IMG/VR virus record: IMGVR_UViG_3300046513_000221
Span: 1 to 64,000 of that record
From: a virus
Direction: 5' to 3' (one strand)
Length of the DNA stretch: 64,000 nt
Part shown: positions 3,774 to 63,879 of the stretch, piece by piece
How the letters are laid out: each line of letters begins with the position of its first letter
Position numbering within the stretch: the first letter of the stretch is position 1
Notes under the pieces: generated by a model
The model's database searches: none
What the model saw: the letters and a program-made list of their open reading frames with translations, nothing else
Told to the model about the DNA's origin: nothing
Made by a program: the position numbers and the translations under genes

Positions 3774-4485
3774 TTTTCTGTGTTCCCAAATGTGAGTGAT
3801 TACAAAAAATAAGAGAGATGGCCCGATGCCGAAGCACCGAGCCTCTCAACTGCTTCCCTTTTCTGGTGGAGTGGGTCGCTATCTTCTTCTCGTCTGTTGC
3901 TACGTTGGATTTTGAGGTACAGCTGTGTCGTGTGTACTGCCGATACTGCCTTTTCGACCGTGTCCAGTCTACGTTTGGGTTCCACAGGCCACCATTTCGC
4001 CTGAATCGTTAAGCACCGCCTCGTGGCGGCTCTCTGGGTGATGTGATGAGCGCGTTTCAGCCCCATCCGGTACTCGCCCGGTACGTTACTGTGCTACGAG
4101 TCATAGGGAGGAAACCATTTGTCCGTGTCCCTACGAAGTTGATCCCTCAGTCCCCGACGGTCTGAAGAATTTTGATGCAAGAAGTGAGGTTGAGGTGGGT
4201 AGCTTAAAGGCTTCTTCTCCGCTCGTGTGAAGGGGTGGAGAGAAAGGACGCCTCCCTCCTACCCGGAGAGTGGATCCCAATTAGGTGCCTCAGCGAATCG
4301 ATAAGCTGACCCACCGAGGCGAGAACGGTTCTCGAACTAGGTTCGATCCCCATTGGACCGGATTAACGGTAACCCTTTCGGGCTGCTTGAGAACGGGGGT
4401 TCCGTGGAATTCCCCGTAGTTGTTAGATGAACCTTTCAGTCCATCATCGATATAATATATCAACAAGTGACCTGCAGATACGGTC

Positions 4486-8593: not shown

Positions 8594-8618
8594 GGTAGTA
8601 CTCCCAAAAGTGATGCGG

Positions 8619-10787: not shown

Positions 10788-10994
10788 TCATTTCTTTTTC
10801 TTTTCCCACAGACCCGTCTGCTCGTTCTTCTCGTAGCCAGACTTAACGGCGGTCCATGCCGTCTTGAAGCAGACGCTCTCATCGAGTTTCCGATCGTGAG
10901 CGGCGTTGAAAGCATGCATGAAGATCTCTTGAGCATGCTCCGGCAGAACGTGCTGGACGTTCGCCGGTAGGTCGTCGATACTATTGTAGGGCAT
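10788..10994 (-). CDS. ChaB-like protein (68 aa)
   Basis: MPYNSIDDLPANVQHVLPEHAQEIFMHAFNAAHD ... KTAWTAVKSGYEK matches the ChaB family signature; AAGGAGAG RBS. The listed ORF begins 20 codons upstream. Confidence 0.6.
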   Translation of the reverse strand: MPYNSIDDLPANVQHVLPEHAQEIFMHAFNAAHDRKLDESVCFKTAWTAVKSGYEKNEQTGLWEKKKK

Positions 10995-16296: not shown

Positions 16297-16388
16297 CTTA
16301 CTTCCTTACTCGTTGTGAAAAGCACGGGCGCTAACCCGCTCCCAGCCCAACTCCGCTGGCCTAAGTCTTTGACTCTCAGCCTCGTTTT

Positions 16389-16398
16389 AATTATATAT
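16389..16398 (-). promoter_or_regulatory. AT-rich promoter-like motif (ATATATAATT on minus strand)
   Basis: One copy of a recurring intergenic motif; 93 nt upstream of the 16012..16296 start. Confidence 0.3.
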
Positions 16399-17595: not shown

Positions 17596-19767
17596 TTACA
17601 GGGTACGATTTTCCGGAAAGCTAGATGCTGCAGCCTCCAGGAACAAACGCACCGTGGTGTTGATGTACGCCCTGTTCATCGGGCCGGTACGGGCCAGACG
17701 GACGTTGATCGCACGCGGGTCGATGTGCGGCCACGCGTACTCCAGAACGGACAGTGCTTGCTTCACCGTCAGAGCCGACATGGTACGGCTGCGGATCAGC
17801 TCCGCGAGTTCCCAAGGAGGGGTCTCGGAACTGAAGAACACACCGTTCGCCGCCTCCGCAGGTGCCTTCGGAATGAAGGTGTCCGGGAACTTCACACGGT
17901 TCTTGTGCTGTTCGGCGAACAACTCGAAGTCACGCTTGCGGTTCAGGACATCGACCGCTCCGCTGCCGTGGTTACGGGTCTGCAGCAGATTGATGTAGGT
18001 CTCCAGAGCACTGACAGCCAAGGTGTCCTTGGCACGCAGGATGAAGACCGGCTCGTCGCTCGGGATTGCATGCCCGGTGCTGCGGACGTACAGTACGCCG
18101 TCACTGATCCCGTACTTAGGATCCTGCGACACAGGGAACGTCGCCTTCTTGGTACCGTAGGCGGTGTTCTCGATGTAGCGACGAGACAATTCCTTCATGC
18201 GTAGCAGGACAGCCAGCTCGTGATCGTAGTACGACATGTTGTCGCGACTCTGGTCATCGTCATGCTCGCGAGCGTCCTCGATGTACTTCTTGAACGAATC
18301 GTAGTGCGACACGATGTCCTTCAGAGCCTCGATCGCGCCATAGCTGAAGAACAGTGCACCGTCCACCAGCGGCAGCTTATCGTCGAAGTCCTTGCTGATC
18401 ATGGTCCGCAGAGCCTCGATCATGTAGGGATTGCTGTCAGTGAAGCGTTCCGCGATTTGACTCGCTGCGAAGAACGCATCGTCGCGCCACGCCTGTACCT
18501 CGGCGCGAGTGTAGACACGCTGGCCCTTCTGGAGGGCGCTGCCGTCGCGGTAGTCCTGTGCCAGATTTTTGTCCGCCACCTTGTCCACCGAGCGACCGAT
18601 CTCGGCCAAAACGGTACCAACCTTGTCGCGGATGCCCTCGATGGATACCGACTTCAACACCTCGTCCAAGGCGTTGAGAAGTGCCACCTCTGGCGGCTCG
18701 GAGCGGTAGATGCTGGTCGCCTTGGGGAAGCGGCGGCACAACTCGTCCAACATGTAGCTCAGACGGAGGCTAGGGGTGCCAGCACCGCCATTCTCCAACT
18801 GGTTGATGCGCCACTCCATCCACTTGATGCGGTCGCGTGCGCCGGTGACGACGGCCTCGTGTTGCAGGTCGCCGCGCATCAGCATACGTACCATACCGGC
18901 CATCTCGTCGTGGGACAGATGACCAAAGGCCAGTTCCGACAGCTCCGTGGAGTGCAGAGCGGTGCCGCTCTCGGAAACCGGAACCTGTGGTCCCTCCAGC
19001 AGCTTACGACGCAGATCGTCGGCCTCAGCACGAGATGCCTCCAGAGCCTTGTTCAGGCGATCGACTTCCTTCTCCAGAGCGGAACGACCCGGAGGAGCAC
19101 TGCTGACCTTGCTGTCCTTCAAGTTGAACAGCTGACCGAAGCCGGTCCACTTGCCGTCGTTCCAGTGCTCGACGAAGCGCATGTCGTTTGGCGTGCGGCG
19201 GGTGATGCAGTAGTGGCCGGTGACGCCGTCGGCACGGTCGGTCAGGTACGGAGCGCCGGGGTTTACCATGTCCAGAGGGACCAGATGGAAGCCGACGTTC
19301 AGGTGATTGCCAGTGCCCACGTCGAAGCCGACCTGCGTGTCGGTGATCTCGACGAACTTGCCGAAGAACAGGAATGCCTTGCGGAAGTTCTCGATGGGAG
19401 CAACGCTGTTGATGTCCAGCATGGCCTCGACCTCGTACACCGAGAATGCCTTCGAGTACTCGGCGAATTCCTCGTTCGAGTAGCCACGGTTGACCATCTC
19501 GTTATTGAGCAGGACGGTCAGGCCGGAGCGGAAGTCGATCTGCACACCGCGATCGGTTCCGTGGTCCTCGTCGGTGTTCAGGGAGATGGTCACACGACGT
19601 GCCAGCATGTCTTCGAGCAGCATCCACAACATGTCGTAGACGGCATTGTAGGCTTTTGTAGGATCCTTGAGCTGGAGCTCCACCTCGATCGGAGGGTTGA
19701 AGGCGGTGAAGCTTACACGGACGTTCTGACCCTCTTCGTGGGGCAGGATTTTATACGAGAAAAGCAT
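17596..19767 (-). CDS. large hypothetical protein (723 aa)
   Basis: Listed start is TTG; first ATG (MLFSYKILPHEEG) at 19765-19767 with TTTGGGAGTACAA RBS. Confidence 0.65.
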   Translation of the reverse strand: MLFSYKILPHEEGQNVRVSFTAFNPPIEVELQLKDPTKAYNAVYDMLWMLLEDMLARRVTISLNTDEDHGTDRGVQIDFRSGLTVLLNNEMVNRGYSNEEFAEYSKAFSVYEVEAMLDINSVAPIENFRKAFLFFGKFVEITDTQVGFDVGTGNHLNVGFHLVPLDMVNPGAPYLTDRADGVTGHYCITRRTPNDMRFVEHWNDGKWTGFGQLFNLKDSKVSSAPPGRSALEKEVDRLNKALEASRAEADDLRRKLLEGPQVPVSESGTALHSTELSELAFGHLSHDEMAGMVRMLMRGDLQHEAVVTGARDRIKWMEWRINQLENGGAGTPSLRLSYMLDELCRRFPKATSIYRSEPPEVALLNALDEVLKSVSIEGIRDKVGTVLAEIGRSVDKVADKNLAQDYRDGSALQKGQRVYTRAEVQAWRDDAFFAASQIAERFTDSNPYMIEALRTMISKDFDDKLPLVDGALFFSYGAIEALKDIVSHYDSFKKYIEDAREHDDDQSRDNMSYYDHELAVLLRMKELSRRYIENTAYGTKKATFPVSQDPKYGISDGVLYVRSTGHAIPSDEPVFILRAKDTLAVSALETYINLLQTRNHGSGAVDVLNRKRDFELFAEQHKNRVKFPDTFIPKAPAEAANGVFFSSETPPWELAELIRSRTMSALTVKQALSVLEYAWPHIDPRAINVRLARTGPMNRAYINTTVRLFLEAAASSFPENRTL

Positions 19768-19781
19768 TTGTACTCCCAAAA

Positions 19782-20261: not shown

Positions 20262-20303
20262 AGCTCTACTTCCAATTAAAAAGTCAACGCATAACCCATA
20301 TGA

Positions 20304-20312
20304 ATAATATAT
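20304..20312 (-). promoter_or_regulatory. AT-rich promoter-like motif (ATATATTAT on minus strand)
   Basis: Intergenic; 43 nt upstream of the 19782..20261 start. Confidence 0.35.
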
Positions 20313-20336: not shown

Positions 20337-21509
20337 TTACGCCGCCAGAGCGAACATGTCGTCAACTGGACCCGGCAGCGGTTTGGCGTCCTTCAGGTCG
20401 GTCTTGGTCTTGGTCAGAGGATCATCGACCAGACTGCGAGCACGACCGCGCTGAGAACCCTTGCTGCTGCGGGTCTTGCAACCGCCGCCGACGCGCTTCG
20501 TGAACTTGAAGAAGTCCTCCGGGATGAAGGCAGTCAGGGTCTTCGTCTCGGCGTCATAAACGAAGGATGCATTGATGCCGACTTGTACCTCGTCGAACTT
20601 CTCCAGATCTGGCTCGGAGATATTCGACTGCGCCAGAGTCGAGGACTGTACTGCGCCCTGTGCCGTCAGCTTGAAGCCCTTCGGATGGGCCTTCAGCACC
20701 AACATCTGGTTCTTGTCCAGCTCGACGGAGATGTTGCGACCATTGTTGGCGTCGTCGATGTACAGGGAGTCAGCAATCTCCTTGACCATCTTCGAGCCGA
20801 AGGTCACGGTCAGACGACCGAGATTATCGCCCTTGATCTTGCGGTTGTAGCTATAAAACAGCTTCGCCACGATGCGATGATGGTTCGGATACACCGAGTC
20901 CATCAGGAACTTCACCGGGTCGGCGCGGATCAGAGCGATCTGGTCGCTAAACCACAGGCGCAGCTCTGGGTATTTCAGCTGGTTGACCAGACGCGTGTAG
21001 ATTGCCAGATACTCCTTGCCGGATTGGATGATACGGTATCCGGTGCCACGGGAGCCGTCGTTCGTGAAGACCATCTCATGGATGTCGAAGAACGGATGTT
21101 CAGCCAGCGGTGTCTTGCGAGAGCAGCTGTAGAGCGACTTCATGCCGAAGCCGGTCTGCGTGATCTTCATCGCGCCACCCTTCTTACCCTTGCTCTTGAA
21201 CCACAAAGGGATAACCGGGGCGTAACGCTTACCTTCCTTCAGATCGGGGGCCGGGAAGCGGGTACCGGTGTCCATCTGACCGTGACCGTCAGCGGCCAGA
21301 GTCATGGCCCAGATACGGGTGAAGAGTCCTTCGTTGCCGTTCCCGGCACCGTTGCTCTTGCGCAGCCCCTTCGTCACCAGCTCCAGCGATGGCAGCGCGA
21401 TGCGGGACATCGCTCGGAGGATCGGGTCGTTGCGCGAGATCGTCGGCAGGTTCTTAAAGCGGAAGGTGTCCTCGACGCCTTCGATGGTTGCTTGATTGGT
21501 GTCTTTCAT
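20337..21509 (-). CDS. hypothetical protein with basic C-terminal region (390 aa)
   Basis: ATG verified; no recognisable catalytic motif. Confidence 0.6.
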   Translation of the reverse strand: MKDTNQATIEGVEDTFRFKNLPTISRNDPILRAMSRIALPSLELVTKGLRKSNGAGNGNEGLFTRIWAMTLAADGHGQMDTGTRFPAPDLKEGKRYAPVIPLWFKSKGKKGGAMKITQTGFGMKSLYSCSRKTPLAEHPFFDIHEMVFTNDGSRGTGYRIIQSGKEYLAIYTRLVNQLKYPELRLWFSDQIALIRADPVKFLMDSVYPNHHRIVAKLFYSYNRKIKGDNLGRLTVTFGSKMVKEIADSLYIDDANNGRNISVELDKNQMLVLKAHPKGFKLTAQGAVQSSTLAQSNISEPDLEKFDEVQVGINASFVYDAETKTLTAFIPEDFFKFTKRVGGGCKTRSSKGSQRGRARSLVDDPLTKTKTDLKDAKPLPGPVDDMFALAA

Positions 21510-24324: not shown

Positions 24325-24388
24325 GATGCTCCCATAGGTACTAAATTCTTGAGTTTTCGAGTCTCCACTCGGATTTCTCTTCATTTTT

Positions 24389-24397
24389 ATAATATAT
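24389..24397 (-). promoter_or_regulatory. AT-rich promoter-like motif (ATATATTATA on minus strand)
   Basis: Intergenic; 65 nt upstream of the 23767..24324 start. Confidence 0.35.
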
Positions 24398-29571: not shown

Positions 29572-30645
29572 TTACATGAACAGGGTGGAGACCTCGACAC
29601 GATTGTCGAAGGCCGTGATGTTGTAGTGATCGAAGTCCGAACGCGACACCTTGTTGGCGGCTGCGAACTGGCTCTCGACCTTGAGGATGTCTTCGTCGGC
29701 CAGCAGATTGACGTGCTCAAACACGTCGAACAGCGCGACACGGGCCTTCATGGTCTCGATGTCGGCGTCCAGCACATCGAAATCCTTGAGGATGTCGTAG
29801 TCGTTGAACTTGCTGTGGGTCTGCTTGATCTTGTTGATCAGGTCGATGGCCTTCTTCGACTTGTACTTGGCGATCATCGGGACGTCGTCGGTGCCCACCA
29901 GATTGCCGTACAGTTGGATGAACGAATCGCTCGTCTTCAGCTCGTCGCCGTGCTTCACCGCGTACTTGTGCTTCTCGTACAGGTAGTTGAAGTAGCCGTT
30001 CGTCGTGACCATCTTGGAGTTCTCACCTGCCGGGTGCAGGTTGAAGAAGCCCTTGAAGCACTGCGAGTACTGCTGGATCAGTGGATCATTGCTGATGAAG
30101 ACGTTGTACTTCGACTGCGTCAGCACGTTCGGATCCTGACGCTGAGAGAGCGCTGGGATCACAGAAAGATCCACATCATCGGTGTTGACGACGAACAGAT
30201 CCGGGATGCAGTTGGCGAAGCGCGCCATTTTCTCGCCGATGAAGCCGAGGTAGGCCGGTTTGACGGTCTTCTCGATGATCGTCTTGCTCCAGTCCGGCGC
30301 GATGGCGGTCTTGTACTTGTCCGGGGTCTTACCGCTGTCGAACATGAGGACGACCTGCAGGTTGCAATTGCGCTTCTCGACGAAGTAGCGCTTGTAGTGG
30401 ACGATGAAGTTCAGCGTCTCAGCAATGACCTTGTTGGAGTCGGTCACGAACTCGGAGGTCACCATGTCAGCGTAGTACTTGATGCGCATGATGTCCATGA
30501 TGTATTTCATGTCGATGAACAGCGTGACAGAGGTCTCGATCACGCGCTCAGCGAACAGCTCATCCAGAACGGAGTACTTGACCTTCTTGCGATTGAAGGC
30601 GAAGCCGAAGCTGCTGTTCTCGTCTTGATTGCCGTGGTAACTCAT
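29572..30645 (-). CDS. T4 RNase H / FEN-family 5'-3' exonuclease-like protein (357 aa)
   Basis: Acidic clusters in FEN-like order (VVLMFDSGKTP ... VVNTDDVDLSVIPAL ...) resembling T4 rnh; AAAGGAAAT RBS. Confidence 0.6.
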   Translation of the reverse strand: MSYHGNQDENSSFGFAFNRKKVKYSVLDELFAERVIETSVTLFIDMKYIMDIMRIKYYADMVTSEFVTDSNKVIAETLNFIVHYKRYFVEKRNCNLQVVLMFDSGKTPDKYKTAIAPDWSKTIIEKTVKPAYLGFIGEKMARFANCIPDLFVVNTDDVDLSVIPALSQRQDPNVLTQSKYNVFISNDPLIQQYSQCFKGFFNLHPAGENSKMVTTNGYFNYLYEKHKYAVKHGDELKTSDSFIQLYGNLVGTDDVPMIAKYKSKKAIDLINKIKQTHSKFNDYDILKDFDVLDADIETMKARVALFDVFEHVNLLADEDILKVESQFAAANKVSRSDFDHYNITAFDNRVEVSTLFM

Positions 30646-30917: not shown

Positions 30918-30953
30918 TAGTTTCCCTTTAGATTCTAGTCACAGTCAAACCTA

Positions 30954-30962
30954 TAATATATC
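30954..30962 (-). promoter_or_regulatory. AT-rich promoter-like motif (ATATATTATAGG on minus strand)
   Basis: Intergenic; 37 nt upstream of the 30672..30917 start. Confidence 0.35.
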
Positions 30963-35427: not shown

Positions 35428-36873
35428 TTAGTGTACGTTCTTCGGATCTTCGAAGAACATGTCCTTCACGTTCGTGCAGAACGGCACGATGGTACCGCTC
35501 AAGCCCGGATCACCGGACGAGGACGCATTCAGCGACAGGTTGCCGAGGAACGACTCGTGGATGCTGCGGTACTTGACCAGAACGTTACCACCGTTCGCAC
35601 CGAGGGACTGAGCGCCACGCGCCGACCACTTCAGTGCCACGTTGAACAGGTTCAGCGTGTTGGTGATGTTGGAGTAGCGCAGCAGCTCGTTGGTGATCAG
35701 GCGCTTGACGAGGAACATCGCGCCGATGTTGCTGAACACCGTCTCCAGACGCTTCATGTCGATGTTGCGGCTGTTCAGGATGCGGACGGTGATCTCGGAC
35801 CACTTGATCAGCAGCGGGAAGATCAGGTACTCGTACAGGCGCAGACGGCGCGTGTAGATGTTGAGGCTGTCCAGCTGGTGCAGCTCTTCGTAGTTCCATG
35901 CCATGTAGCGCACGACATCGAAGGTGCTCTGCTTACCGTCATCCGGCAGCTCGCGCAGGTTCTTCTTGGTACGCTCGTCGAGGATGCGCTCCAGCGACAT
36001 GATGGCCTTGTCTGCCTTCTCCAGCTTGGAGGTCGGCGAGGTCAGGATCTTACGACGCCAGAAGTCGCCGGACGCCAGACTAGTGGACTTCTTCACGTTC
36101 TCCAGCACATGATGCAGGGAAATCACGAGGTTGCGGAAGTTGGCATCGGACTGCAGACGCTCCTTGTTGACCACCATCGTCATGGTCTTGCTCGGATGGA
36201 AGTACTCGAAGTCGCTGTCCACCTCGACCTCTTGATCATTGAAGACGAACACGTCCTCATCCAGCTTCATCAGACGCATGGTCTCCTCGAAGCCGTACTT
36301 GATGAAGAAGTAGATGAAGAAGTTCTTGAATGCGTTGATGTTGTTCGAGCGGGTCTTGAAGAAGTCCAGCAGGAACACCTTACCGTTGTAGTCGGTGCCG
36401 CCGTTCGACTGGATGGTCGTCTGCTTGTGGCGAACGCCCAACGGCATCAGCAGCGTCTTCAGGAAGATACCATTGCGCACGTTGTAGAAGTTCTTGTCTG
36501 CAACCTGCAGGATCGCGTAGTAGCGGTTCCCGTTCAGGATGAAGAAGTAGTCGTCGACCAGCTTCGGGATGAACAGGTGCAGAGCGCGCTCCTTCTTCTC
36601 ACCCTCCCACTCGATCATGAACCGGGCCTCGATCAGGTCCAGACGCGATTCCTCGATCGAGATGGTCTGCTTCGAGATGTACTTGTGGCACTCCTCCTCG
36701 TTGATGCGCTTCATGTCGAGGAACTTGATGCCGGGGATCGAGTTCAGCGTCGAGAACAGGTCGCGGAAGTAGCTGTCGATGTCCTCGCGTTGACGGATGT
36801 AGATCAGGTCTTCATTGAACTTCTCCGGGTTGTCTGCCTGGAACTTCTTGTAGAATTGGGTTTGGATGTCCAT
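35428..36873 (-). CDS. candidate multisubunit RNA polymerase beta-subunit N-terminal fragment (481 aa)
   Basis: Real start MDIQTQFYKK with AAGGAG RBS. C-terminal LGANGG ... RSIHESFLGNLSLNASSSGDPGLSGTIVP resembles the beta fork-loop region (LGPGGL ... [24 protein letters not shown]). Lies a few genes from the beta'-like gene. The product call is tentative. Confidence 0.6.
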   Translation of the reverse strand: MDIQTQFYKKFQADNPEKFNEDLIYIRQREDIDSYFRDLFSTLNSIPGIKFLDMKRINEEECHKYISKQTISIEESRLDLIEARFMIEWEGEKKERALHLFIPKLVDDYFFILNGNRYYAILQVADKNFYNVRNGIFLKTLLMPLGVRHKQTTIQSNGGTDYNGKVFLLDFFKTRSNNINAFKNFFIYFFIKYGFEETMRLMKLDEDVFVFNDQEVEVDSDFEYFHPSKTMTMVVNKERLQSDANFRNLVISLHHVLENVKKSTSLASGDFWRRKILTSPTSKLEKADKAIMSLERILDERTKKNLRELPDDGKQSTFDVVRYMAWNYEELHQLDSLNIYTRRLRLYEYLIFPLLIKWSEITVRILNSRNIDMKRLETVFSNIGAMFLVKRLITNELLRYSNITNTLNLFNVALKWSARGAQSLGANGGNVLVKYRSIHESFLGNLSLNASSSGDPGLSGTIVPFCTNVKDMFFEDPKNVH

Positions 36874-36881
36874 GCTGCTCC

Positions 36882-37139
36882 TTAGCGAACGTTCTTGTAG
36901 GCTTCCAGAACTGCCGCCTTGACGACCTCCGGTGCTGCGGTGAAGTAGTCGGCAACCATCGCCACGGTCCACTTGGAGCCGTTGCGCGGTGCCGAGCCGG
37001 TCATGTAGAATGCCAGCTTGTCGGAGATGACGCGCCAATGACGTTCAGTGATCTCTTCCATCTTGAGGCCGAGAAACTCAGCGACTTCCTCTGCGTGGTA
37101 GATGTAGCTGTGGGTTACCAGCCCGGATACGATAGCCAT
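36882..37139 (-). CDS. hypothetical protein (85 aa)
   Basis: ATG verified. Confidence 0.45.
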   Translation of the reverse strand: MAIVSGLVTHSYIYHAEEVAEFLGLKMEEITERHWRVISDKLAFYMTGSAPRNGSKWTVAMVADYFTAAPEVVKAAVLEAYKNVR

Positions 37140-37636
37140 TATGATTCTTCCTCGGTTATAACTCTTTTGTGCTTATTGACTAGCACGAAGTCTGGATCAT
37201 TCCTGATCCTCCACAGCTCGGTCGCCTGACAGGCATGACCGCTCTGGCCGAACTTGTCGGATAATCCCGATGCGTCACGTATGACCGCGTACAGCTTCGG
37301 GTTTTCCCTTATGTATTCATCCCAGAGCCGAGAGTACAGAACTCGTACCTCGTCCGGGTTTAGCGGCACTTTGCCTTTGGCGAACTTCCAGCCCATGCCA
37401 CTGATGTTGCCCTCGAAGACCTTCGATGCTTGATAGATCTCCTCGATACTTCTGTTGCCGCGAGAGCGGATCCTCGCATAGAAGGCTGAGAGCCTGCAGT
37501 CCCCTTGAGAACTGCATTCGAGAAACGGCGACTCTCCGTGGCTTATCACACCGATTTTCCCATACTCGTAATCAACTGTTCGTCTGGCATCCGGAATCGA
37601 TTGCCAAAACGTGATTGGTATGCATAGGTCTTCCAA
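37139..37636 (-). CDS. hypothetical protein, possibly NADAR/YbiA-like (165 aa, start uncertain)
   Basis: Weak similarity of PFLECSS ... SIEEIYQASKVFEG to the NADAR core (SNF ... EHyfQAxKF). An alternative GTG start at 37549 would remove the overlap with 37546..37800. Confidence 0.4.
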   Translation of the reverse strand: MEDLCIPITFWQSIPDARRTVDYEYGKIGVISHGESPFLECSSQGDCRLSAFYARIRSRGNRSIEEIYQASKVFEGNISGMGWKFAKGKVPLNPDEVRVLYSRLWDEYIRENPKLYAVIRDASGLSDKFGQSGHACQATELWRIRNDPDFVLVNKHKRVITEEES

Positions 37637-38634: not shown

Positions 38635-38708
38635 TCTCAGTTCGGCATCTATTATAACGCCATTTTCGGTTTTACGCTATGCAACTTAACAACAGTCGAT
38701 ATCACTGC

Positions 38709-38718
38709 TATTATATAT
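38709..38718 (-). promoter_or_regulatory. AT-rich promoter-like motif (ATATATAATA on minus strand)
   Basis: Intergenic between the beta' gene stop and 38580. Confidence 0.3.
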
Positions 38719-38739: not shown

Positions 38740-40308
38740 TTACTCCTTGGTGAGCATGTACAGTGCCAGACCACCCTCACGATGGATGCCCCGGATGAAG
38801 TTACCCTGAGTATCCATATAGTTCATCGGCGAGAACATGATCTTTTCCGCCTCGATGTTGGCCTCTGCGGAGAACAGACCTGCCACACGCATCGTGTCGC
38901 CGTCGTAGTCACCACCGAGACCCTTCATGTATGCGAAGTTCGGTACGTAGGTGTCGATCCACTGGATCTTGTCTTCGAGGATCGTGTTCTTACCATCGGT
39001 CGGGAAGAACGGGTAGTCCTTGAAGTTCTTGTTACCGGTTCCGCCCTCGCTCACCAGACCGGACACGTCCACGGTTTTCTCCGTGGTCAGGATCTTCACC
39101 CGGCAGGTGATGACGGACTCGGGACCAGTCACCGGGAAGCGGGTGGCGATTACGTGCTTGTCGCGGCACACGTCGATCGCGGCGTCGTACAGGAAGTCGG
39201 TCAGTGTGTAGTGGCGATCCGGCAGACCCTTGATACCCTCGATGTTTTTCATGATCGGAGTGCGATCACCGACGCCGTTCAGACGAAAGGCCTGAGTACG
39301 GATCCGCTTAGTCTTGTCCTTGATGTAGCCGTTCACGATCTTCTGGATGTTCGCGGACGAGATGGTCTCGTACACGGTGTCCTGTAGGTCGTAGCGTTCG
39401 TCACCCTCCAGTACGATCGATGCCGAGTGCTCGTACTCATGGAAGAAGTCTTCGATCCACTTGATGATGAACGGATAGAACAGGTTCAGTGCCAGATGGA
39501 GCGGTACCCCGAAGTAGTTGTATGGGATCTGCTGCGTCTCGGGGGTGTTGCTCTTGATCTGCGAGCAGGAGAGCACGCCGATGGTCGAGTAGTCGATGGA
39601 CTTACCCATGATGGCCTGACGGATCACGCCCTTCTTACCGGCGATCTTCTGAGTCAGTTCCTTATGGATCTCGACCAGCAGGTTCTGCACGGAGGATTGG
39701 GTGATGTAGCTGTTCTCGAAGATGATGGCCTCCGAGGTGGCGGCATTCAGGAGCTTGATGTACAGGGCGTTGACACCCTCCACAGTGATCTTCTTGGAGC
39801 CGGACTGACTGGAGAAGTTCACATCGCGGTAGTAGGCAGGGATGACCAGCCACTTGTCGAGGAAGATCTCATCGAACTTGAGCATGTTGAGCAGCTCGTC
39901 CTTCTTCTCGCGGCTAGCGTTGATAGTACCTTCCTTCACCCACTTGATCTTCTTCCAGTTCTTGACGAAGAAGTCGATGCCGCACTCACCCTGCTCCGGG
40001 TCGTCGGACACAACGAGGTTGCCGAACTGGTCGAGCCGGACGTACTTGTCACCAGCCAGAACGAGCGGCAGCGCACGAAACATCTGGAAGATGGTGATGT
40101 ACACCATCGGGTGAAAGAACTTACGACGGAGATCGATAAAGCCGAAGTTGTTCTTACGCTCTTCCGAGCCGAACTTACCGAAGATCTTTGTCGAGAACAG
40201 ACCGTCCTCGCTTGGGAGTCCATCCGATCCGAGATAGAAGCGGTTGTTTACTTGCTCGCAGCCGTTCACACGGATGAACTCGTTCATGTTGAATGCGTCT
40301 AATTGCAT
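38740..40308 (-). CDS. multisubunit RNA polymerase beta'-like subunit, N-terminal fragment (522 aa)
   Basis: KGLGGDYDGDTMRVAG is the universal NADFDGD Mg-binding motif, sitting near the C-terminus as in split beta' N-fragments; RFPVTGPESV region; AAGGGAAAG RBS. Confidence 0.7.
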   Translation of the reverse strand: MQLDAFNMNEFIRVNGCEQVNNRFYLGSDGLPSEDGLFSTKIFGKFGSEERKNNFGFIDLRRKFFHPMVYITIFQMFRALPLVLAGDKYVRLDQFGNLVVSDDPEQGECGIDFFVKNWKKIKWVKEGTINASREKKDELLNMLKFDEIFLDKWLVIPAYYRDVNFSSQSGSKKITVEGVNALYIKLLNAATSEAIIFENSYITQSSVQNLLVEIHKELTQKIAGKKGVIRQAIMGKSIDYSTIGVLSCSQIKSNTPETQQIPYNYFGVPLHLALNLFYPFIIKWIEDFFHEYEHSASIVLEGDERYDLQDTVYETISSANIQKIVNGYIKDKTKRIRTQAFRLNGVGDRTPIMKNIEGIKGLPDRHYTLTDFLYDAAIDVCRDKHVIATRFPVTGPESVITCRVKILTTEKTVDVSGLVSEGGTGNKNFKDYPFFPTDGKNTILEDKIQWIDTYVPNFAYMKGLGGDYDGDTMRVAGLFSAEANIEAEKIMFSPMNYMDTQGNFIRGIHREGGLALYMLTKE

Positions 40309-40447
40309 GATGCTTTCCCTTGATTGGTTGGGTTATCTAAAGTACTGTTACTCTTTAAACTAAAGGAGTTTTGTCGGTAATTACCTGAAAGCACCAGCTG
40401 TGCGCAAACAGTTGGTTAGATCCCACTAACCAACCGAGTCAATCCAC

Positions 40448-41422: not shown

Positions 41423-41467
41423 AAAAAAAGACACCCATAGCCCCGGAAAGGGCTATGGGTTCTTTTT
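41421..41467. terminator. bidirectional terminator A9-ACCCATAGCCC-N6-GGGCTATGGGT-T5 between convergent genes
   Basis: 11-bp perfect stem flanked by an A-run and a T-run. Confidence 0.7.
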
Positions 41468-42230
41468 AATGATCCCAGGCCAAGTACTGGCCGTCATCGA
41501 GAACGTGCTCGTTCTCGGGATCGTACAGGCGATGGGTGTTGGGGTTCACGCGCAGCTCGGTGTCATACCAGAAGATGCCTACCTGATGCTCGCGCTTCAG
41601 ATCCAACTCCATAGGAATGTCCACGTTGTGGCGCAGACGCGGCAGGAAGAACTCCTTGCCGTGCGAGTCGGTGTTCTCGATGACATCGACGATGTTGTAC
41701 GTTGCGTCATCGGCGAACGAGGTGTAAATGACATCATGCTCCTTCATGGCCTCGGATTTCTTCTGCTTGCCCTCGGTCAGGATGAAGCGCACCTTGACAC
41801 CGGCGCTCTTGAACGGTTCCATGATGCGGTCGAGCATCCGGATCTTGCTCGCCGTGACCGGGTAGGACACATCCACGCAGCTCGTGATGACGGTGATGCT
41901 GTTCAGCACGTCATGCTGGAGCATCTGGCGCAGCAGATGGTAGTACGCCGACGTCTGCAGGTTGTCGTAGAAATTCGGATCGTAGAAAAATTTGTTCAGC
42001 ATCAGCTTGCCCAGTTCAGGATACTTCTTCTCGAAGTCCTCTTCAAAGTGGGTAAGGATTGGGTACTGGAGGCGGTTAGCCGGGTTCGAGTTGATTGCCG
42101 AACTGAACTGCGTCTCGGACAATGCACCACGAAGCTTCGTGTCGTTAAGGATAACCTTCACCCATGGAGTGCTGCAGTCAACCAGCACATCGTCCATATC
42201 GGTGGCTATGTCGAATTTCTTATTCGTCAT
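41466..42230 (-). CDS. HAD-superfamily phosphatase, 5'(3')-deoxyribonucleotidase-like (254 aa)
   Basis: Motif I DIATDMDDVLVD (DxDxV) and later SFADDATYN (DD). Confidence 0.5.
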   Translation of the reverse strand: MTNKKFDIATDMDDVLVDCSTPWVKVILNDTKLRGALSETQFSSAINSNPANRLQYPILTHFEEDFEKKYPELGKLMLNKFFYDPNFYDNLQTSAYYHLLRQMLQHDVLNSITVITSCVDVSYPVTASKIRMLDRIMEPFKSAGVKVRFILTEGKQKKSEAMKEHDVIYTSFADDATYNIVDVIENTDSHGKEFFLPRLRHNVDIPMELDLKREHQVGIFWYDTELRVNPNTHRLYDPENEHVLDDGQYLAWDH

Positions 42231-43117: not shown

Positions 43118-43867
43118 CTACTTACCTGTTCGATTGTGTAAATCGTGCAGGTGGAATTTGTAGATGAAGTCGTACTCGCTATTTCCGTAGCTGACGTACA
43201 GACGATTCATGCCGACGTGGAGCTGCATGTACTCCTCCGTTTCGGTCTTTTTGTTCTTCAATTTCTCGAAGTTGTGCAGACAGATGAGCGTCTTGTTCTC
43301 CAGCGAGAGGCCGAGCTTGGTCTCATGCAGGTGGATGTCACCGTCGATGATCTCCATGAAGACGAACAGGTTCTGGACCAGTTGCTTCTTCAGGTCGACG
43401 ATCTCGATGATGTCGTTCATGACGATATCACCTTCCTTGACGATGTCGCCATCGTAGTACAGGTTCGCTTTCTTGCAGTCCAGTTCTTTCAACGAGCTGG
43501 TGGGCTCGTCGGACAGGAGGCTCATGTCGATCTTCCCGGTGAACTTTACCGGGAACTCCTCACCGTTGCAGGTGAACCCGCGTTCGTTGAGGTACATGTC
43601 TGGCACGTACTTCTTGTTATCGGCACCGATGAGCTGCTTCTTGTGCAAGCTCAAGAAGGTGTACAGTTTCTTACCGTCTTCGATGAAGATGTACCGTGGC
43701 ATCTCATCTTCGACCTCGATCTTGAAGCTGTCGCAGCTGATCAAGATATCGGACTGACCATCGTTCGAGATGATGGTCTGCTCGACTAGGTCGAAATAGT
43801 ACGGGTTGTTCTTTACATACTGATTTACCTCGTAAAGCTTTTTCGAGTCGATTAGGATTGGTTTCAT
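43118..43867 (-). CDS. hypothetical protein (249 aa)
   Basis: ATG verified. Confidence 0.55.
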   Translation of the reverse strand: MKPILIDSKKLYEVNQYVKNNPYYFDLVEQTIISNDGQSDILISCDSFKIEVEDEMPRYIFIEDGKKLYTFLSLHKKQLIGADNKKYVPDMYLNERGFTCNGEEFPVKFTGKIDMSLLSDEPTSSLKELDCKKANLYYDGDIVKEGDIVMNDIIEIVDLKKQLVQNLFVFMEIIDGDIHLHETKLGLSLENKTLICLHNFEKLKNKKTETEEYMQLHVGMNRLYVSYGNSEYDFIYKFHLHDLHNRTGK

Positions 43868-43919
43868 GTCAAATCTCTATGTGAGTAATAGATTGTTGGA
43901 TCGTCTCACTCACACCAAA

Positions 43920-43928
43920 ATAATATAT
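43920..43928 (-). promoter_or_regulatory. AT-rich promoter-like motif (ATATATTATTTT on minus strand)
   Basis: 53 nt upstream of the 43118..43867 start. Confidence 0.35.
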
Positions 43929-45849: not shown

Positions 45850-47535
45850 CTATGCCAGCAGCGCCTCCAGATCGACGATGACGTCGTTGACGTCAGGCAG
45901 ACCGAGGAGTTCCTTGCCGATTCGGATGATATCGTTCTCGGCGATGAGGCCGGGGATGATATCGTCGAGTTCCGGACGCTTGTCGCACATGATCTTGCCG
46001 ATCATGGTGTCCGCATCGATGTTACCTGCCAGAATGATCGATGGATACATGGACGATAAGTCCTCGTCCACAATATTCTCGAAGATGCGATTGGAGCGCT
46101 TGCCATCCTTGCTGATGACGATGCCGACGGCGTCCATCATCTCAGGCAGAGCCACGAATGCACCCTTGAACTTCTTCTTCTCTTCCTCTTCCTTCAGACG
46201 GTTGTGGTTGTTGGACAGGAGGAAACCCTCCTTCTCCAGAACCATCGCCGCGAAGTTACGGATCGAGGTGGTCTTGGTCATGACCTTGTTGAAGCGGGTC
46301 GCGGTCATCAGGCCCATGTTGTACAGCAGGTCGATGTCGTTGTTCTGCTCTTCGAGCTGATACAGACGGAACGAGTCATACATCGAGTACTTGAGGAAGC
46401 TCTCGTAGTTGATGTACATCGCGTCCGTGATCTCGCCCTCGTACTCATACTTACCTTCGATCCCCTCGTCGATCAGGATCGCATCCAGAGCGTACGATTC
46501 GCGCTTGCCCATCGTCGCCCGGATCTTGGCGAACTGCTCCTGCATCTCGACGAACTGCGAGTAACCTGCAACCTCCAGCTTGGTGTTCCGCTTGGTGAAG
46601 TCGGTTGCGAAGGAATCGTTCTCGATCCATGTGGACTTGTACGGCAGCTCCTTTGGACACATCACCTCTTCAGGCTTTAGCTTCAGTCGGAGCATACGGT
46701 TCTTCATGGTTACCAAGTCGAACCCGGCGTTCCAAGCACCCATGAAGTCGGGTTTGTCACGCTTCACGATCTTGAAGAAGTCCTTCAGCAGCTCCGCCTC
46801 ATCGTCGTAGATGTGTACCTCGATCGCACGCACCTTGGCGTAATCGATCTTGGAGTTTGGATCCTTCTCGTTCATCTCGTCGATGACCTGAGAGATCCAC
46901 TCATCGCCGTATTCTGCGAATGCTTCAAGGAAGTCCATCTGAGATTGGTTGTTCTCGTTCTTCAGGATGAACGAGTGGATGGTCATCGTCGGCTGGTGGA
47001 TGTACGAGATCATCGACACCGGACATGGAGCCAGCTCTGGTTCAGGAAACTCCCTGTACTCCGACACATCGACCTCAATATCGTAGAACGCCTTGGTGAT
47101 CGGCAGGACTGCGATCTGGTGACGGTTGCGGTCGAGCCACTCACGCGTCTTGTAGTCTGCCAGATCCATGTCCGTCAGGTGCAGGTTGTTGTCCTTGTGG
47201 AGGTTACGGAGTTCCTTCCACTTACCGTTGTTCTTACAAGCCTTGTAGAAGTCCATCTGGTCGGAGGCCTTAGCCATCTCATACTGCAGATTGTCGAACT
47301 TCACGGTTATCGGCTCGACCTTGTCGAACTCGATGTAATTCGCTGCCTTCTTCAGCCTGAACTCGTCCTTGGTAATGTAGAACGTGTAGGACGGATCCTC
47401 CTCGATCTCGAATTGCTTCTTGATCGTACCATCCGGTTGAAGTACGCTCTCCACATAGATGATCTTGGAGTGCTGGCGATTGTTGTCGTCACGATCGCGA
47501 ACGTGCAAGACGTTCGATAGCTGTTTTCCGCTCAT
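45850..47535 (-). CDS. family-B DNA polymerase, N-terminal part (3'-5' exonuclease domain + polymerase motif A, 561 aa)
   Basis: Exo I YDIEVD; Exo II WNAGFDLVTM; Exo III YSMYDSFRLYQL; motif A DLSSMYPSIILAGN. The protein ends about 70 aa after motif A. Confidence 0.75.
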   Translation of the reverse strand: MSGKQLSNVLHVRDRDDNNRQHSKIIYVESVLQPDGTIKKQFEIEEDPSYTFYITKDEFRLKKAANYIEFDKVEPITVKFDNLQYEMAKASDQMDFYKACKNNGKWKELRNLHKDNNLHLTDMDLADYKTREWLDRNRHQIAVLPITKAFYDIEVDVSEYREFPEPELAPCPVSMISYIHQPTMTIHSFILKNENNQSQMDFLEAFAEYGDEWISQVIDEMNEKDPNSKIDYAKVRAIEVHIYDDEAELLKDFFKIVKRDKPDFMGAWNAGFDLVTMKNRMLRLKLKPEEVMCPKELPYKSTWIENDSFATDFTKRNTKLEVAGYSQFVEMQEQFAKIRATMGKRESYALDAILIDEGIEGKYEYEGEITDAMYINYESFLKYSMYDSFRLYQLEEQNNDIDLLYNMGLMTATRFNKVMTKTTSIRNFAAMVLEKEGFLLSNNHNRLKEEEEKKKFKGAFVALPEMMDAVGIVISKDGKRSNRIFENIVDEDLSSMYPSIILAGNIDADTMIGKIMCDKRPELDDIIPGLIAENDIIRIGKELLGLPDVNDVIVDLEALLA

Positions 47536-47614: not shown

Positions 47615-47727
47615 ATTTATTATTTATAATTATTTAAATTCGCGACACGTACGCGCGCGCGAGAAAGTCATTCGAGCTCCACCAGCTGACCGGAAGTCCA
47701 CTGAAAATGTGATGCTTAACAACCCAA

Positions 47728-47736
47728 TAATATATA
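47728..47736. promoter_or_regulatory. AT-rich promoter-like motif in divergent region (AATAATATATA)
   Basis: Between the 47535 (-) start and the 47777 (+) start; the following AT-rich block 47610-47660 also looks promoter-like. Confidence 0.3.
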
Positions 47737-49840: not shown

Positions 49841-49979
49841 GTTCTTCGGCGGCGGTCTCCAAAAAATGCTACCGCCGAACTAAATTGACCCTAACATTCA
49901 GATAGAATGCAGCCTTCAGAGGGCTGTGTAAGTTGATTTAGGATAACCTAAACCTCTTTTACTTTTAAGGAAGAATCAC

Positions 49980-51664: not shown

Positions 51665-52555
51665 ATGACCATGAACCACCCAAGCAATTTTACTCAAGAG
51701 CTGCACGCATATGCCGAACAGGCAGGTTGCGGTCTCACCACGCTGAGTTCCGATGTGATCGATGGCTACGTCATCGACATCGCCGACCCGGCCAGCCGCG
51801 TGGCTATCAACCTCGTACCCCTGAACGGGATCGAGAGTCCAGACAACAGGTTGCTCGAAATGTCCATGAAGGCACATGAGAACAACTTCACACTCTATCA
51901 CGTCTTCGAATCGGACTGGATGCATCGTCGCTCAGTCCTGATGAAGAAGATCGACTCCCTTCTCGGGATTGGCAGCGAAGAGAAAACGATCTACCGCTCG
52001 AAAAAGTGTGAGATCCGGCGCATCGATGAGAAGACCTTCCGGGAATTCTTCCGCACCAATTCGGTCGCGGTAACATCGAAAGCCGATAAGTACTTCGGAA
52101 TGTATCCGATCGACAAGCAAGACACAACACTGGTCGCGGCGATCGCCGTTAAGAACCTGAAGAAGGATCCGAACGGCTCCATCATCACGTCCTATGTGAC
52201 CAACCTCGACCACAAGGTCGTTGGTGCTTTTGGCAAGTTCGTGGGATACCTGAAGGGCGGCAAGAACTACTGTCTGTACCACGCGGATCTCCGCTGGTTG
52301 GACCTGCGTTCGACCTTCCTCAACAAGGCTTCCATGAAGTTCGTCAAGGTGTCGGAGCCACTGCGCTTCGCCTACACCCAGAGCATCAAGAAGCTCCACC
52401 TGCTGAACGGGATGACCCGCGAGAGTCTTTCGTCCCGCGTATCCTTGTCGAAGCCGTACGATACACGGCTCTCGATTGAGGATAATCTGGCAGCGAATGA
52501 CTTCAGCTTCATCCGCGATGCTGGCTGTATGATCTTCTCCTCGAAGAAGAACTGA
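51665..52555 (+). CDS. hypothetical protein in its own terminator-flanked unit (296 aa)
   Basis: AGGAGG RBS; terminators on both sides; less biased codon usage than the capsid gene. Confidence 0.55.
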   Translation: MTMNHPSNFTQELHAYAEQAGCGLTTLSSDVIDGYVIDIADPASRVAINLVPLNGIESPDNRLLEMSMKAHENNFTLYHVFESDWMHRRSVLMKKIDSLLGIGSEEKTIYRSKKCEIRRIDEKTFREFFRTNSVAVTSKADKYFGMYPIDKQDTTLVAAIAVKNLKKDPNGSIITSYVTNLDHKVVGAFGKFVGYLKGGKNYCLYHADLRWLDLRSTFLNKASMKFVKVSEPLRFAYTQSIKKLHLLNGMTRESLSSRVSLSKPYDTRLSIEDNLAANDFSFIRDAGCMIFSSKKN

Positions 52556-53011: not shown

Positions 53012-53145
53012 AAGTTGGGGTGTTAAGCGTCACCGTCCCACGTCTGGGAGACGTAAATCCCTTCAGATGAAATGAGACAGTTACTTTCTAATTAGATGTT
53101 AGGCTTGCGAAAAAATAAAATAGCCAATCACAAGAACGGATACGT

Positions 53146-53157
53146 GTATATATAATA
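53146..53157 (+). promoter_or_regulatory. AT-rich promoter-like motif (TATATATAATAT) upstream of the DNA polymerase C-fragment gene
   Basis: 55 nt upstream of the 53212 ATG in a divergent intergenic region. Confidence 0.3.
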
Positions 53158-53211
53158 TGGATGTATGAGTTAGAAGCATCCTCGAATGAATTTTGAAAGG
53201 AAGGTTAGTGT

Positions 53212-55176
53212 ATGAGCGGAGTCTACCATGACAAATATTTCGAGACGCTGGAACGGCGTCTCAGCCTCGTCTGCGGCGAACTCAGCGACGAGGATCGTGC
53301 AAAGCTCCGGGAGCGCATCTGGGCGATGCGCAAGCCAATCGAACTGACGATCGAAAACAACTACAAAGACACATGGATCGATACCAACTCGGAAGAGATC
53401 CTCAACATCATCTACGACAAGAAGCCGAACATCTCCGGCTATGGCGTACTGTTCAACCACAAGCCGAACATCCCCGGTCGCGTTCTGGACTTCCTGCTGA
53501 AGGAACGTAAGGTCAAGAAGAACAAGATGTTCGACCACCTGAACGACGACGACAAGACCATGTACAACAAGCTGGACGTGGAGCAGAAGGTGCTCAAGGT
53601 TCTGGCGAATGCGTACTACGGTGCGTTCGGTCAGCGTTCGTTCCACTTCTTCAATCCGTTCCTTGGTCCATCAGTGACCTACACGGGTCAGCACATCATT
53701 CTGAGCGCGATTCTCGGCTTCGAATCGTTCATGTCGGACAACTTCGCGTTCTTCACGTTCGACCAGCTGCTGAAGTACGTGGACAACATCACTCAGGAGT
53801 TCGACGCCGAGCTGACGGCTCTGGACGAGAAGGTCACCGTCGAGCAGGTGTACGCTCGTCTGTCCGGCAAGTGCAACTTCGAGCTGACCGAGGAGCAGCA
53901 GATGGTGCTGGGCGGCGTCCTCGATGACATGCCTTACACCCAGCTGGAGCGTCTGTTCCTCAAGAACAACCTGTTCTTCCTGCTGCGTAACTCCACGGAG
54001 GTGCGTGACATCTTCGGTGAGTGCTTCAGTTCGGAATTCCTCGATCCAGACCATCCTCCGAAGGAGATCGCTGAGAACGTCGAGGCACTGAACGAGTACT
54101 TCAGCTACTTCGTCTCCTATCCGTACCAGTGGGACGACAAGTACGAGACTGCGCAGAATATCAAACGCAAAACCGTGCTGATCTCCGACACGGACTCCAC
54201 ATTCCTCAATATGGATCCTGCCGTCAAGTGGTACGAGGAAACGTTTGGTGTCAAGCTTGATAAAGTGGGCAAGATCAACGTCTGCAACATCATGGTATAC
54301 AACGTTACGAAGTTCATCGAGAAGGTGTTCTACCAGCTTACGACGAACCTGAACGTGAAGGAGAACATGCGTTCGAAGATCAATATGAAATCCGAGTTCA
54401 ACTTCTCCCGGATCATCTTGACTAAGAACAAGAAGCAGTATGCAGGTCAGATCGTTCTACAAGAAGGCAAGCTGCTCGGTAAGCCCAAGTTCGCGGTCGT
54501 CGGCCTGTCAATCAAGAAGGTCGGTACTCCTAAGATCGCTCGCAAGCGGTTCAATGACATTCTCGAAAAGGACATGTTGTTGGCCGACGTCATCGATCCG
54601 CTGGTACCGTTCATGAAGTTCATGGAGTTCGAGCGCGACATCAACAACTCGCTCCGGGCCGGTGAGTCGAGCTTCCTGAAACCGGCGCGCTTCACCGCTG
54701 AACGCGCCTACAAGAAGCCATTCACTCAGCAGACCGTTCGCGGCGTACGCCTCTGGAATGCTATCTTCCCCAACAGGAAGATCCCTAACTTCACCTCCGT
54801 CAATATGCTGAAGCTGCGTAAGTACTCGCTGCCGAAGTTCGAAGTGGACAAGGATGGCGAACCGGTAGAGAACGTCAACAAGGAAGTCGACATTCTGGAA
54901 TTCATGGAGGAGATTGCTAAGCTGAATCTCGCCGAGAATATTCTGGAGGGCATCGCCGAGTTCATCCAGACCCCGGAGATCGGCAACTACGGCATCGACG
55001 TGATCGCCATTCCGAAGGACATCGACCAGTTCCCGGAGGAGCTGGTTCCTCTGGCCGACATCAGTTCCATCATCAACGACAACATGAAGAATGGTAACAT
55101 CCTTCTGGAGTCCATTGGGTTCAAGGTAATCAAGAGCCTGAAGTACGATACGGTGAGTAACATCATCGAGATCTAA
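53212..55176 (+). CDS. family-B DNA polymerase, C-terminal part (motifs B and C, thumb; 654 aa)
   Basis: Motif B KVLANAYYGAFG (KxxxNSxYG); motif C LISDTDSTF (DTDS); GAAAGGAAGG RBS. Confidence 0.75.
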   Translation: MSGVYHDKYFETLERRLSLVCGELSDEDRAKLRERIWAMRKPIELTIENNYKDTWIDTNSEEILNIIYDKKPNISGYGVLFNHKPNIPGRVLDFLLKERKVKKNKMFDHLNDDDKTMYNKLDVEQKVLKVLANAYYGAFGQRSFHFFNPFLGPSVTYTGQHIILSAILGFESFMSDNFAFFTFDQLLKYVDNITQEFDAELTALDEKVTVEQVYARLSGKCNFELTEEQQMVLGGVLDDMPYTQLERLFLKNNLFFLLRNSTEVRDIFGECFSSEFLDPDHPPKEIAENVEALNEYFSYFVSYPYQWDDKYETAQNIKRKTVLISDTDSTFLNMDPAVKWYEETFGVKLDKVGKINVCNIMVYNVTKFIEKVFYQLTTNLNVKENMRSKINMKSEFNFSRIILTKNKKQYAGQIVLQEGKLLGKPKFAVVGLSIKKVGTPKIARKRFNDILEKDMLLADVIDPLVPFMKFMEFERDINNSLRAGESSFLKPARFTAERAYKKPFTQQTVRGVRLWNAIFPNRKIPNFTSVNMLKLRKYSLPKFEVDKDGEPVENVNKEVDILEFMEEIAKLNLAENILEGIAEFIQTPEIGNYGIDVIAIPKDIDQFPEELVPLADISSIINDNMKNGNILLESIGFKVIKSLKYDTVSNIIEI

Positions 55177-55716: not shown

Positions 55717-55781
55717 TACTCTACCTATCGATTTACGGCCATCAGCCAACATAAGAATAACCTAATTCCAATGGAATACCT

Positions 55782-63705: not shown

Positions 63706-63879
63706 GTTTCTTTCCTTAGAGAAAGTGGTTATTGACTTCCAAAAGTCGGTGTTACGATAAACTTTGGAATGCGATCTAATCTACTGTTTGGCAGTAAGAC
63801 GTACTATTCGATTGCTTTTCAGACCCGCCGCGACAGCGAAGGCTCTGGTTCAAATACGCAATCGGGAATCCCCCGTAGA

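Follow-up and report, generated by a model that had tools for sequence, protein, structure and literature searches.

The window analyzed here, a stretch of 64,000 nucleotides of viral DNA (positions 1 to 64,000 of IMG/VR record IMGVR_UViG_3300046513_000221), contains a 522-residue open reading frame (ORF) that very probably encodes β′N, the N-terminal β′ fragment of a virion RNA polymerase (vRNAP). Judged by sequence comparison, this protein is the ortholog of AR9 gp145, phiR1-37 g178, and phiKZ gp180. Jumbo phages of this kind have two split multisubunit RNA polymerases (RNAPs), a vRNAP that is packaged in the virion and a postinfection non-virion RNAP (nvRNAP) (PMC7598289). A first-pass annotation made from the letters of the sequence had recognized an RNAP β′ fragment in this ORF and left open to which of the two enzymes it belonged. 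Below, we set out the evidence that it is a β′ fragment, that it belongs to the vRNAP, and that it is a complete subunit gene flanked by promoter motifs of the kind described for AR9.

Identity and fold of the β′ fragment

The ORF holds KGLGGDYDGDTMRVAG, with DYDGD at residues 467 to 471, and its C terminus (...LYMLTKE) lies 51 residues past D471, which confirms the earlier description of a 522-residue protein ending shortly after this motif. The GC content at first, second, and third codon positions (GC1/GC2/GC3) is 0.51/0.33/0.81 versus ~0.55/0.35/0.80 in the real genes of the window, and the plus-strand ORFs that overlap the β′N gene display the mirror pattern expected of shadow frames. The same gene of 522 residues was also predicted separately on two metagenome contigs, and related reads are present in SRR26076596 and JGI 3300046660. 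All 30 aligned homologs begin at the same Met (MK/QxD...), which confirms the start codon; the ATG is also preceded by AGGGA, which resembles a ribosome-binding site (RBS).

That this protein is a β′ fragment of a phage multisubunit RNAP, as first proposed, is borne out by several searches. PHROG 2986 (RNA polymerase beta subunit) matches residues 2 to 510 with an E value of 6e-96. When the single sequence was compared to PDB using phmmer, β′/γ chains were found at E ~1e-6 in two blocks. The first block pairs residues 213 to 284 with the GKxGRFRxxxLGKRVDYS region (E. coli β′ 325 to 383), while the second pairs residues 461 to 520 with the kGfnADFDGDqMaVh...LYvLT stretch of β′/γ chains, where HMMER aligns DYDGD directly with the NADFDGD loop of plastid β′/γ chains. 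The upstream block is present as AGKKGVIRQAIMGKSIDYS at residues 223 to 241, in which K225, G227, G235, K236, and D239 are invariant or near-invariant. A profile built on an alignment of 30 homologs, which are 29 to 70% identical to the window protein, matches the AR9 nvRNAP β′N (7s00_d/7s01_d) with an E value of 2e-22 and dozens of bacterial β′ chains at ~1e-16, the SGDYDGD of AR9 gp270 aligning with the GGDYDGD of the family. Since G466, D467, D469, G470, and D471 are invariant in the 30 sequences, DYDGD is not a chance motif. Relative to the cellular NADFDGD consensus, N-A is replaced by G-G and F by Y, and this GGDYDGD is the majority spelling among database homologs (76 of 120).

Structure prediction points in the same direction. 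An AlphaFold2 model computed from the 30-homolog alignment has a mean predicted local distance difference test (pLDDT) score of 76. Searching PDB with Foldseek yielded 589 matches at E ≤ 0.001, the best 50 of which are all RNAP chains or complexes; the top match is 7s00_d (E 4e-17), followed, among the matches listed, by plastid, cyanobacterial, and bacterial β′. The first-pass annotation had named two results that together would count against it, a lack of significant β′/Rpb1 profile matches and a predicted structure without the double-psi β-barrel. Neither was obtained: in the predicted structure, the Asp loop is borne by such a barrel. The N-terminal zinc ribbon of bacterial β′ was not found in the protein, which has five Cys (residues 17, 109, 248, 381, and 402), none of them arranged as CxC...CxxC, and only a short segment separates IFGK from FIDL in the 30-homolog alignment. 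We treat this absence as a lineage-specific loss that is not defining for the superfamily.

The fragment most resembles the virion polymerase

Which of the two polymerases the fragment belongs to was addressed by comparing it to sequenced phages. A tblastn search of 50,697 phage records matched 314 records, all of them at less than 60% identity. The best match is Yersinia phage phiR1-37 g178 (45%), and further matches include Bacillus phages Goe21 and BpSp (36%), AR9/PBS1 (37% over the first exon), and Staphylococcus phage S6 and relatives (35%). Megablast of the β′N gene against the same records gave zero matches; there is therefore no close sequenced relative. No isolate exceeds 45% identity, and no metagenomic protein besides the protein itself exceeds 70%.

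At a tblastn threshold of 1e-5, AR9 and phiKZ are matched in their vRNAP genes only, the single match in phiKZ being gp180. The AR9 record describes g145 as "virion RNAP subunit; β′ subunit, N-terminus," while the phiR1-37 ortholog g178 is annotated as "phage structural protein." In phiKZ, gp180 is a vRNAP subunit found experimentally in virions, at ~10 copies per virion, and gp55 is its nvRNAP counterpart (PMC10612078). The earlier suggestion of a gp180/gp55-type protein thus holds for gp180, the vRNAP subunit, and not for gp55. Likewise, the genome type, given as phiKZ-like or AR9-like, can be narrowed to the AR9/PBS1/phiR1-37 clade and is not that of phiKZ proper.

The protein might instead be the β′N of the nvRNAP (AR9 gp270/phiKZ gp55 type), made early and not packaged, which we consider unlikely. 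Its fold, its DYDGD, and its split point are shared with AR9 gp270, the best solved-structure match, and its gene adjoins the nvRNAP βN gene. However, 7s00_d tops the solved structures only because the PDB searches returned no match to a vRNAP structure. In a local tblastn against AR9, g270 reaches 40 bits at 23% identity, whereas g145 reaches 246 bits for exon 1 (37% identity) and 46 bits for exon 3. The vRNAP-only matches in AR9 and phiKZ, the structural annotation of the phiR1-37 ortholog, and a promoter motif of late rather than early type in front of the gene (see below) also argue against an nvRNAP subunit and for the vRNAP β′N.

A stand-alone subunit gene that is intact

The first-pass annotation described the protein as a stand-alone N-terminal half of β′. 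Stand-alone is apt: 95 of 120 database homologs end 50 to 59 residues past D[YF]DG with the C terminus LYxLTK, so this layout is fixed within the family and does not result from truncation. Half is an overstatement, as the fragment covers the N-terminal ~37% of β′ and reaches approximately E. coli residue 513. Its end aligns to residues 543 to 550 of plastid RpoC1 chains of 677 to 688 residues, which places the phage split ~135 residues before the plastid rpoC1/rpoC2 break. In these alignments, which concern plastid chains only, the phage and plastid split points thus appear to be near each other and not identical, while a review describes the phage and rpoC1-type split sites as coinciding (PMC7598289).

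Genes of this family are often interrupted, which raises the question of whether the ORF is merely exon 1, or a degraded vestige, of a longer β′ gene rather than a functional subunit. The AR9 g145 coding sequence is assembled from three segments separated by two homing-endonuclease genes, phiR1-37 g178 is interrupted as well, and in 14 of 120 metagenomic homologs the protein ends immediately behind D[YF]DG, with unrelated residues. We nevertheless find this highly improbable, since the window gene is uninterrupted and colinear to its last residue with intact LYxLTK homologs (Goe21, BpSp, S6, and 95 metagenomic proteins), its catalytic and conserved positions are all intact, the DNA directly past its stop codon contains an early promoter motif and another gene, and a Rfam scan of the 64-kb window detected no family, group I introns included.

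The interruption in phiR1-37 can be located in its record (AJ972879.2). The annotated g178 product (8001 to 9419; 472 residues) ends at DYDG, with the third Asp missing. That Asp and the last 51 residues (DTFRLIGLFS...LYMMTRD), which share 60% identity with the window protein, have their codons 1.4 kb farther downstream at 10824 to 10979, in a segment partly annotated as the tiny ORF g181; the intervening DNA includes g179 (310 residues) and an annotated early promoter. The insertion probably represents a mobile intron that is missing from the annotation and sits where AR9 has its intron 2. Jumbo-phage RNAP genes are known targets of mobile introns (AR9 annotation), and bioRxiv 10.1101/2023.09.30.560319 reports a jumbo-phage mobile intron.

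A cellular rpoC1-like gene (of the cyanobacterial/plastid γ type) or another host-derived fragment is close to untenable: although split plastid/cyanobacterial β′/γ chains are the best single-sequence PDB matches, identity to them is only ~15%, the protein has no Cys-rich N-terminal zinc ribbon, its close relatives are all jumbo phages, its gene has the head, portal, and sheath genes of a phage and those of a split DNA polymerase as neighbors, and the window ORFs compared include no homolog of alpha, omega, or sigma.

Early and late promoter motifs

The consensus for AR9 early promoters, used by the vRNAP, is AAATATATATTAT-(6N)-G, and that for late promoters, used by the nvRNAP, is AACA-(6N)-TA/G (PMC5312081). 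We scanned the window for both. The TATATWAT core occurs nine times versus 0.29 expected, a count reached in none of 100 shuffles, and all nine sites share aTATATWAT-N5-Y-G, i.e., ATATATWAT-N5-YG. Allowing for at most one mismatch, the full early pattern has 10 sites versus 0.62 expected. All nine sites are oriented with the local genes and lie in intergenic gaps just past the preceding gene, and the early promoters annotated in the AR9 and phiR1-37 records have an identical core and spacing. In form, these sites match the AT-rich early promoters cognate to a vRNAP, whose start site lies 6 to 7 nt downstream, and we predict that they function as such. The one that directly follows the β′N gene heads a minus-strand run of small, tightly packed genes, and both DNA polymerase halves are preceded by early motifs (Table 1).

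No early motif was found upstream of the β′N gene itself, where there is an AACA-N6-TA match. This pattern has 18 sites in the window, nine of which lie at most 100 nt upstream of a gene start and are gene-oriented. As this upstream zone covers 5.9% of positions, the enrichment is significant (binomial p 2.7e-7), and among the nine are sites in front of the genes for head, sheath, and a g153-like virion protein. Control patterns in which spacing or tetranucleotide was altered have two to three sites in the zone, and AACA-N6-TG, with one of 31, shows no upstream enrichment. This positional test is the only convincing one for the late motif. In AR9, the vRNAP genes, g145 included, are late genes, and a late-type motif without an early one 5′ of the window β′N gene fits this scheme, as far as motif statistics go. 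One late site (43886) adjoins an early motif (43913), so that the gene concerned may have promoters of either type and belong to the class termed "continuously expressed" for AR9.

Several points weigh against the assignment to a packaged, late-expressed vRNAP subunit. The sole Pfam match, RNA_pol_Rpb1_2 (PF00623; residues 464 to 491), has an E value of 0.014 and 16.1 bits, below the 25.3-bit cutoff, and cannot serve alone for a β′ assignment; it is the only sub-threshold result among β′/Rpb1 profile searches that otherwise gave the significant matches anticipated in the first-pass annotation. Global confidence in the AlphaFold2 model is moderate (predicted template modeling [pTM] score of only 0.51), and TM-scores against full β′ chains are low (0.33 to 0.41). 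Packaging of the window protein is predicted from its homologs, and the promoter roles are likewise predicted from motif statistics and AR9/phiR1-37 homology, the whole-window count of AACA-N6-TR being weakly above chance (49 vs. 36.6). Finally, the other four vRNAP pieces (β′C, a small C-terminal β′ piece, βN, and βC) are not in the 64-kb window, from which a complete enzyme is not demonstrable.

Neighboring genes

The gene 1.9 kb downstream of β′N on the same strand encodes an ortholog of AR9 gp105, which is annotated as "non-virion RNAP subunit, beta N-terminus." Its listed ORF begins at an upstream TTG (37038), but homology points to the ATG at 36873 as the start. Each of the two polymerases is thus represented in the window by one subunit. 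No further RNAP piece was detected by PHROG scans of 20 large window ORFs, and when 95 window ORFs were compared by tblastn to positions 50 to 250 kb of AR9, g105 and g145 were the only RNAP genes matched. Conversely, the AR9 g089, g125, g154, g226, and g264 proteins have no significant match in the window; in AR9, g125 and g264 belong with g078 and g189 to the vRNAP, while g089, g154, and g226 belong with g270 to the nvRNAP. Positions 1 to 50 kb of AR9, which lie outside the tblastn comparison, have no annotated RNAP gene by gene numbers (PMC5312081). A β′ C-terminal fragment with the trigger loop, whose presence elsewhere in the genome had been anticipated, was not found within the 64-kb window and must lie elsewhere in the genome, since no other RNAP piece is present here.

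Table 1. Coordinates of the β′N gene, its landmarks, associated genes, and promoter-like motifs in the window
Feature	Position	Strand	Basis
β′N coding sequence, 522 residues	38740..40308	−	ATG-initiated ORF; PHROG 2986; profile vs. PDB β′; fold matches; AR9 g145 orthology
D467-Y-D469-G-D471 codons, predicted Mg2+-chelating Asp triad (NADFDGD-loop equivalent; GGDYDGD in family)	38896..38910	−	Translation, invariant columns, alignments to plastid β′ and AR9 gp270
A223-Y240 codons AGKKGVIRQAIMGKSIDY, β′ GKxGxxRxxxxGKxxDYS block (E. coli β′ from ~residue 330)	39589..39642	−	Translation, alignment to E. coli chains
AAGGGAAAG, RBS-like purine run 5′ of ATG	40313..40321	−	Read directly from sequence
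AACAGTACTTTA, AACA-N6-TA match; predicted start A 30 nt upstream of β′N ATG	40338..40349	−	Motif match; predicted function
Early motif ATATATAATAGCAGTG, 22 nt 3′ of β′N stop; heads packed minus-strand run ending in nvRNAP βN	38703..38718	−	Core and spacing match
nvRNAP βN gene, AR9 gp105 ortholog	35428..36873	−	phmmer PDB 7s00_c E 4e-83; tblastn AR9 g105 E 6e-84; phiR1-37 g194
Family-B DNA polymerase exonuclease/N-terminal gene (~AR9 g132)	45850-47535	−	Early motif upstream
Family-B DNA polymerase catalytic gene (~AR9 g152)	53212-55176	+	Early motif upstream
Early motif upstream of DNA polymerase catalytic part	53148..53163	+	Exact match
Other exact early motifs	4445-4460, 16383-16398, 20297-20312, 24382-24397, 30946-30961, 43913-43928, 47720-47735	−	Exact match
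One-mismatch early motif	316-331	−	Pattern scan
AACA-N6-TA sites 19-80 nt 5′ of gene starts	40407-40418, 47718-47729, 49893-49904, 55748-55759	+	Motif match
AACA-N6-TA sites 19-80 nt 5′ of gene starts	43886-43897, 53089-53100, 63777-63788, 43119-43130, 37569-37580	−	Motif match

A split family-B DNA polymerase is a core trait of RNAP-encoding jumbo phages. Its two halves are on opposite strands in the window, 5.7 kb apart. Between the major head gene and the gene for a g153-like virion protein is a free-standing ORF of 296 residues (51665 to 52555, plus strand), which resembles the "Hef-like homing endonucleases" g265, g188, and g146 of AR9 (tblastn E 6e-18 to 9e-14). A small protein (37139 to 37549, minus strand) has a sub-threshold Pfam match to NADAR-DarT1 (E 2e-5; 24.4 bits vs. 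a 27-bit cutoff), and the corresponding neighborhood in AR9 contains g140, a "YbiA family NAD-utilizing enzyme." Five large minus-strand ORFs of 357 to 727 residues (856 to 2721, 14145 to 15557, 17596 to 19779, 20337 to 21509, and 29572 to 30645) have a genuine coding signature; they match no PHROG family at E ≤ 1e-5 and have no tblastn match in the 50-to-250-kb part of AR9. We dropped 41466 to 42230 (minus strand) as a candidate ortholog of the AR9 g151 5′(3′)-deoxyribonucleotidase, an enzyme that would have suited a phage with deoxyuridine-containing DNA, as it has no AR9 tblastn match, no Pfam match, and only PHROGs of unknown function.

The GC content varies between 51 and 60% along the window (55% overall) and reaches ~80% at third codon positions, which is why long shadow ORFs run opposite nearly all of the genes. 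The encoded proteins are rich in K, N, I, F, and Y, a composition of the type found in AT-rich phages. A tRNA scan of the 64-kb window found none.

Discussion

Function, fold, split layout, catalytic motif, the two-polymerase strategy, and the promoter grammar all agree with published accounts of AR9, phiR1-37, and phiKZ. The novelty lies in the family member, which is divergent and comes from a genome of 55% GC; current understanding is unchanged. Compared with AR9 gp145 and its uninterrupted orthologs (vB_BsuM-Goe21, vB_BpuM-BpSp, and Staphylococcus phage S6), identity is 35 to 37%, over residues 1 to 522 in the uninterrupted forms, and the GGDYDGD loop and LYxLTK end are the same. The AR9 genome has the promoter grammar of the window (early ATATATTAT-N6-G and late AACA-N6-TA), and local synteny is partly kept. 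The differences are that two group I introns with homing endonucleases divide AR9 g145, whereas the window gene is intact, and that the window, with its higher GC (GC3 ~0.8), retains no more than a 9-base core of the AT-rich early element. The closest isolate gene, phiR1-37 g178, is 45% identical over residues 1 to 470 and 60% over residues 471 to 522, and early promoters in that phage share the core ATATATWAT-N5-T-G with the window. Unlike the gene studied here, g178 carries an insertion of ~1.4 kb, containing g179, that separates the last D of DYDGD from the preceding G.

More distant systems share the layout. PhiKZ gp180 has the same role and is the same kind of stand-alone N-terminal piece, yet it belongs to a different jumbo-phage clade, its reported motif is DFDGD, and its identity is ~24% over 73% of the protein. 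AR9 gp270 (PDB 7S00/7S01 chain d) is a paralog from the nvRNAP and not an ortholog, with 14 to 23% identity; its motif is 370-DYDGD-374 (PMC9209446). The AR9 nvRNAP uses gp226 to recognize promoters through deoxyuridine (dU) in the template strand. Cyanobacterial γ and plastid RpoC1 also are N-terminal β′ pieces made as separate polypeptides, with NADFDGD, and are the best single-sequence PDB match, but the plastid chains continue ~135 residues further and the zinc ribbon is absent in the phage protein.

In the reading we favor, β′N supplies the clamp, lid-side elements, and double-psi β-barrel of the vRNAP, and the barrel loop GGD467-Y-D469-G-D471 chelates the catalytic Mg2+. The rest of β′ (bridge helix and trigger loop) and the β pieces are separate polypeptides encoded outside the window. 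As in AR9 and phiKZ, the assembled vRNAP would be packaged into virions, injected with the DNA, and initiate at ATATATWAT-N6-G promoters without host RNAP or sigma. It would then express the early genes, including the nvRNAP subunit gene downstream of β′N and both DNA polymerase halves. The nvRNAP would in turn transcribe late genes from AACA-N6-TA promoters, the β′N gene among them, so that new vRNAP would be made late, for packaging. The β′N gene marks the window as belonging to a jumbo phage that both brings and produces multisubunit RNAPs of its own, so that gene expression in this phage is probably independent of the host polymerase, as the first-pass annotation supposed; here, homology and promoter motifs point to such independence.

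Studied members of the AR9/PBS1/phiR1-37 group have deoxyuridine-containing DNA. The GC content of the window genome is far above that of the AT-rich promoter-bearing relatives compared. We see an even chance that the window represents a previously uncultured high-GC lineage of this group (55%; GC3 ~0.8), in which both promoter codes (early ATATATWAT-N6-G and late AACA-N6-TA) are essentially unchanged despite a large shift in composition.

The identification of β′N helps to annotate the contig and to predict early and late gene classes, and its intact gene, free of introns, can be used as a reference for the site inside the DYDG|D codons at which relatives recurrently carry insertions. As a divergent, GC-rich member it widens the sequence diversity of vRNAPs, for which there is no solved structure among the PDB matches obtained, and the early promoter core stands out cleanly against its GC-rich background. 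If the proposed high-GC lineage is real, the 9-base AT core would be the minimal determinant read by a structurally uncharacterized vRNAP, while the conserved late motif would suggest that template-strand, possibly dU-dependent, promoter recognition extends beyond low-GC hosts.

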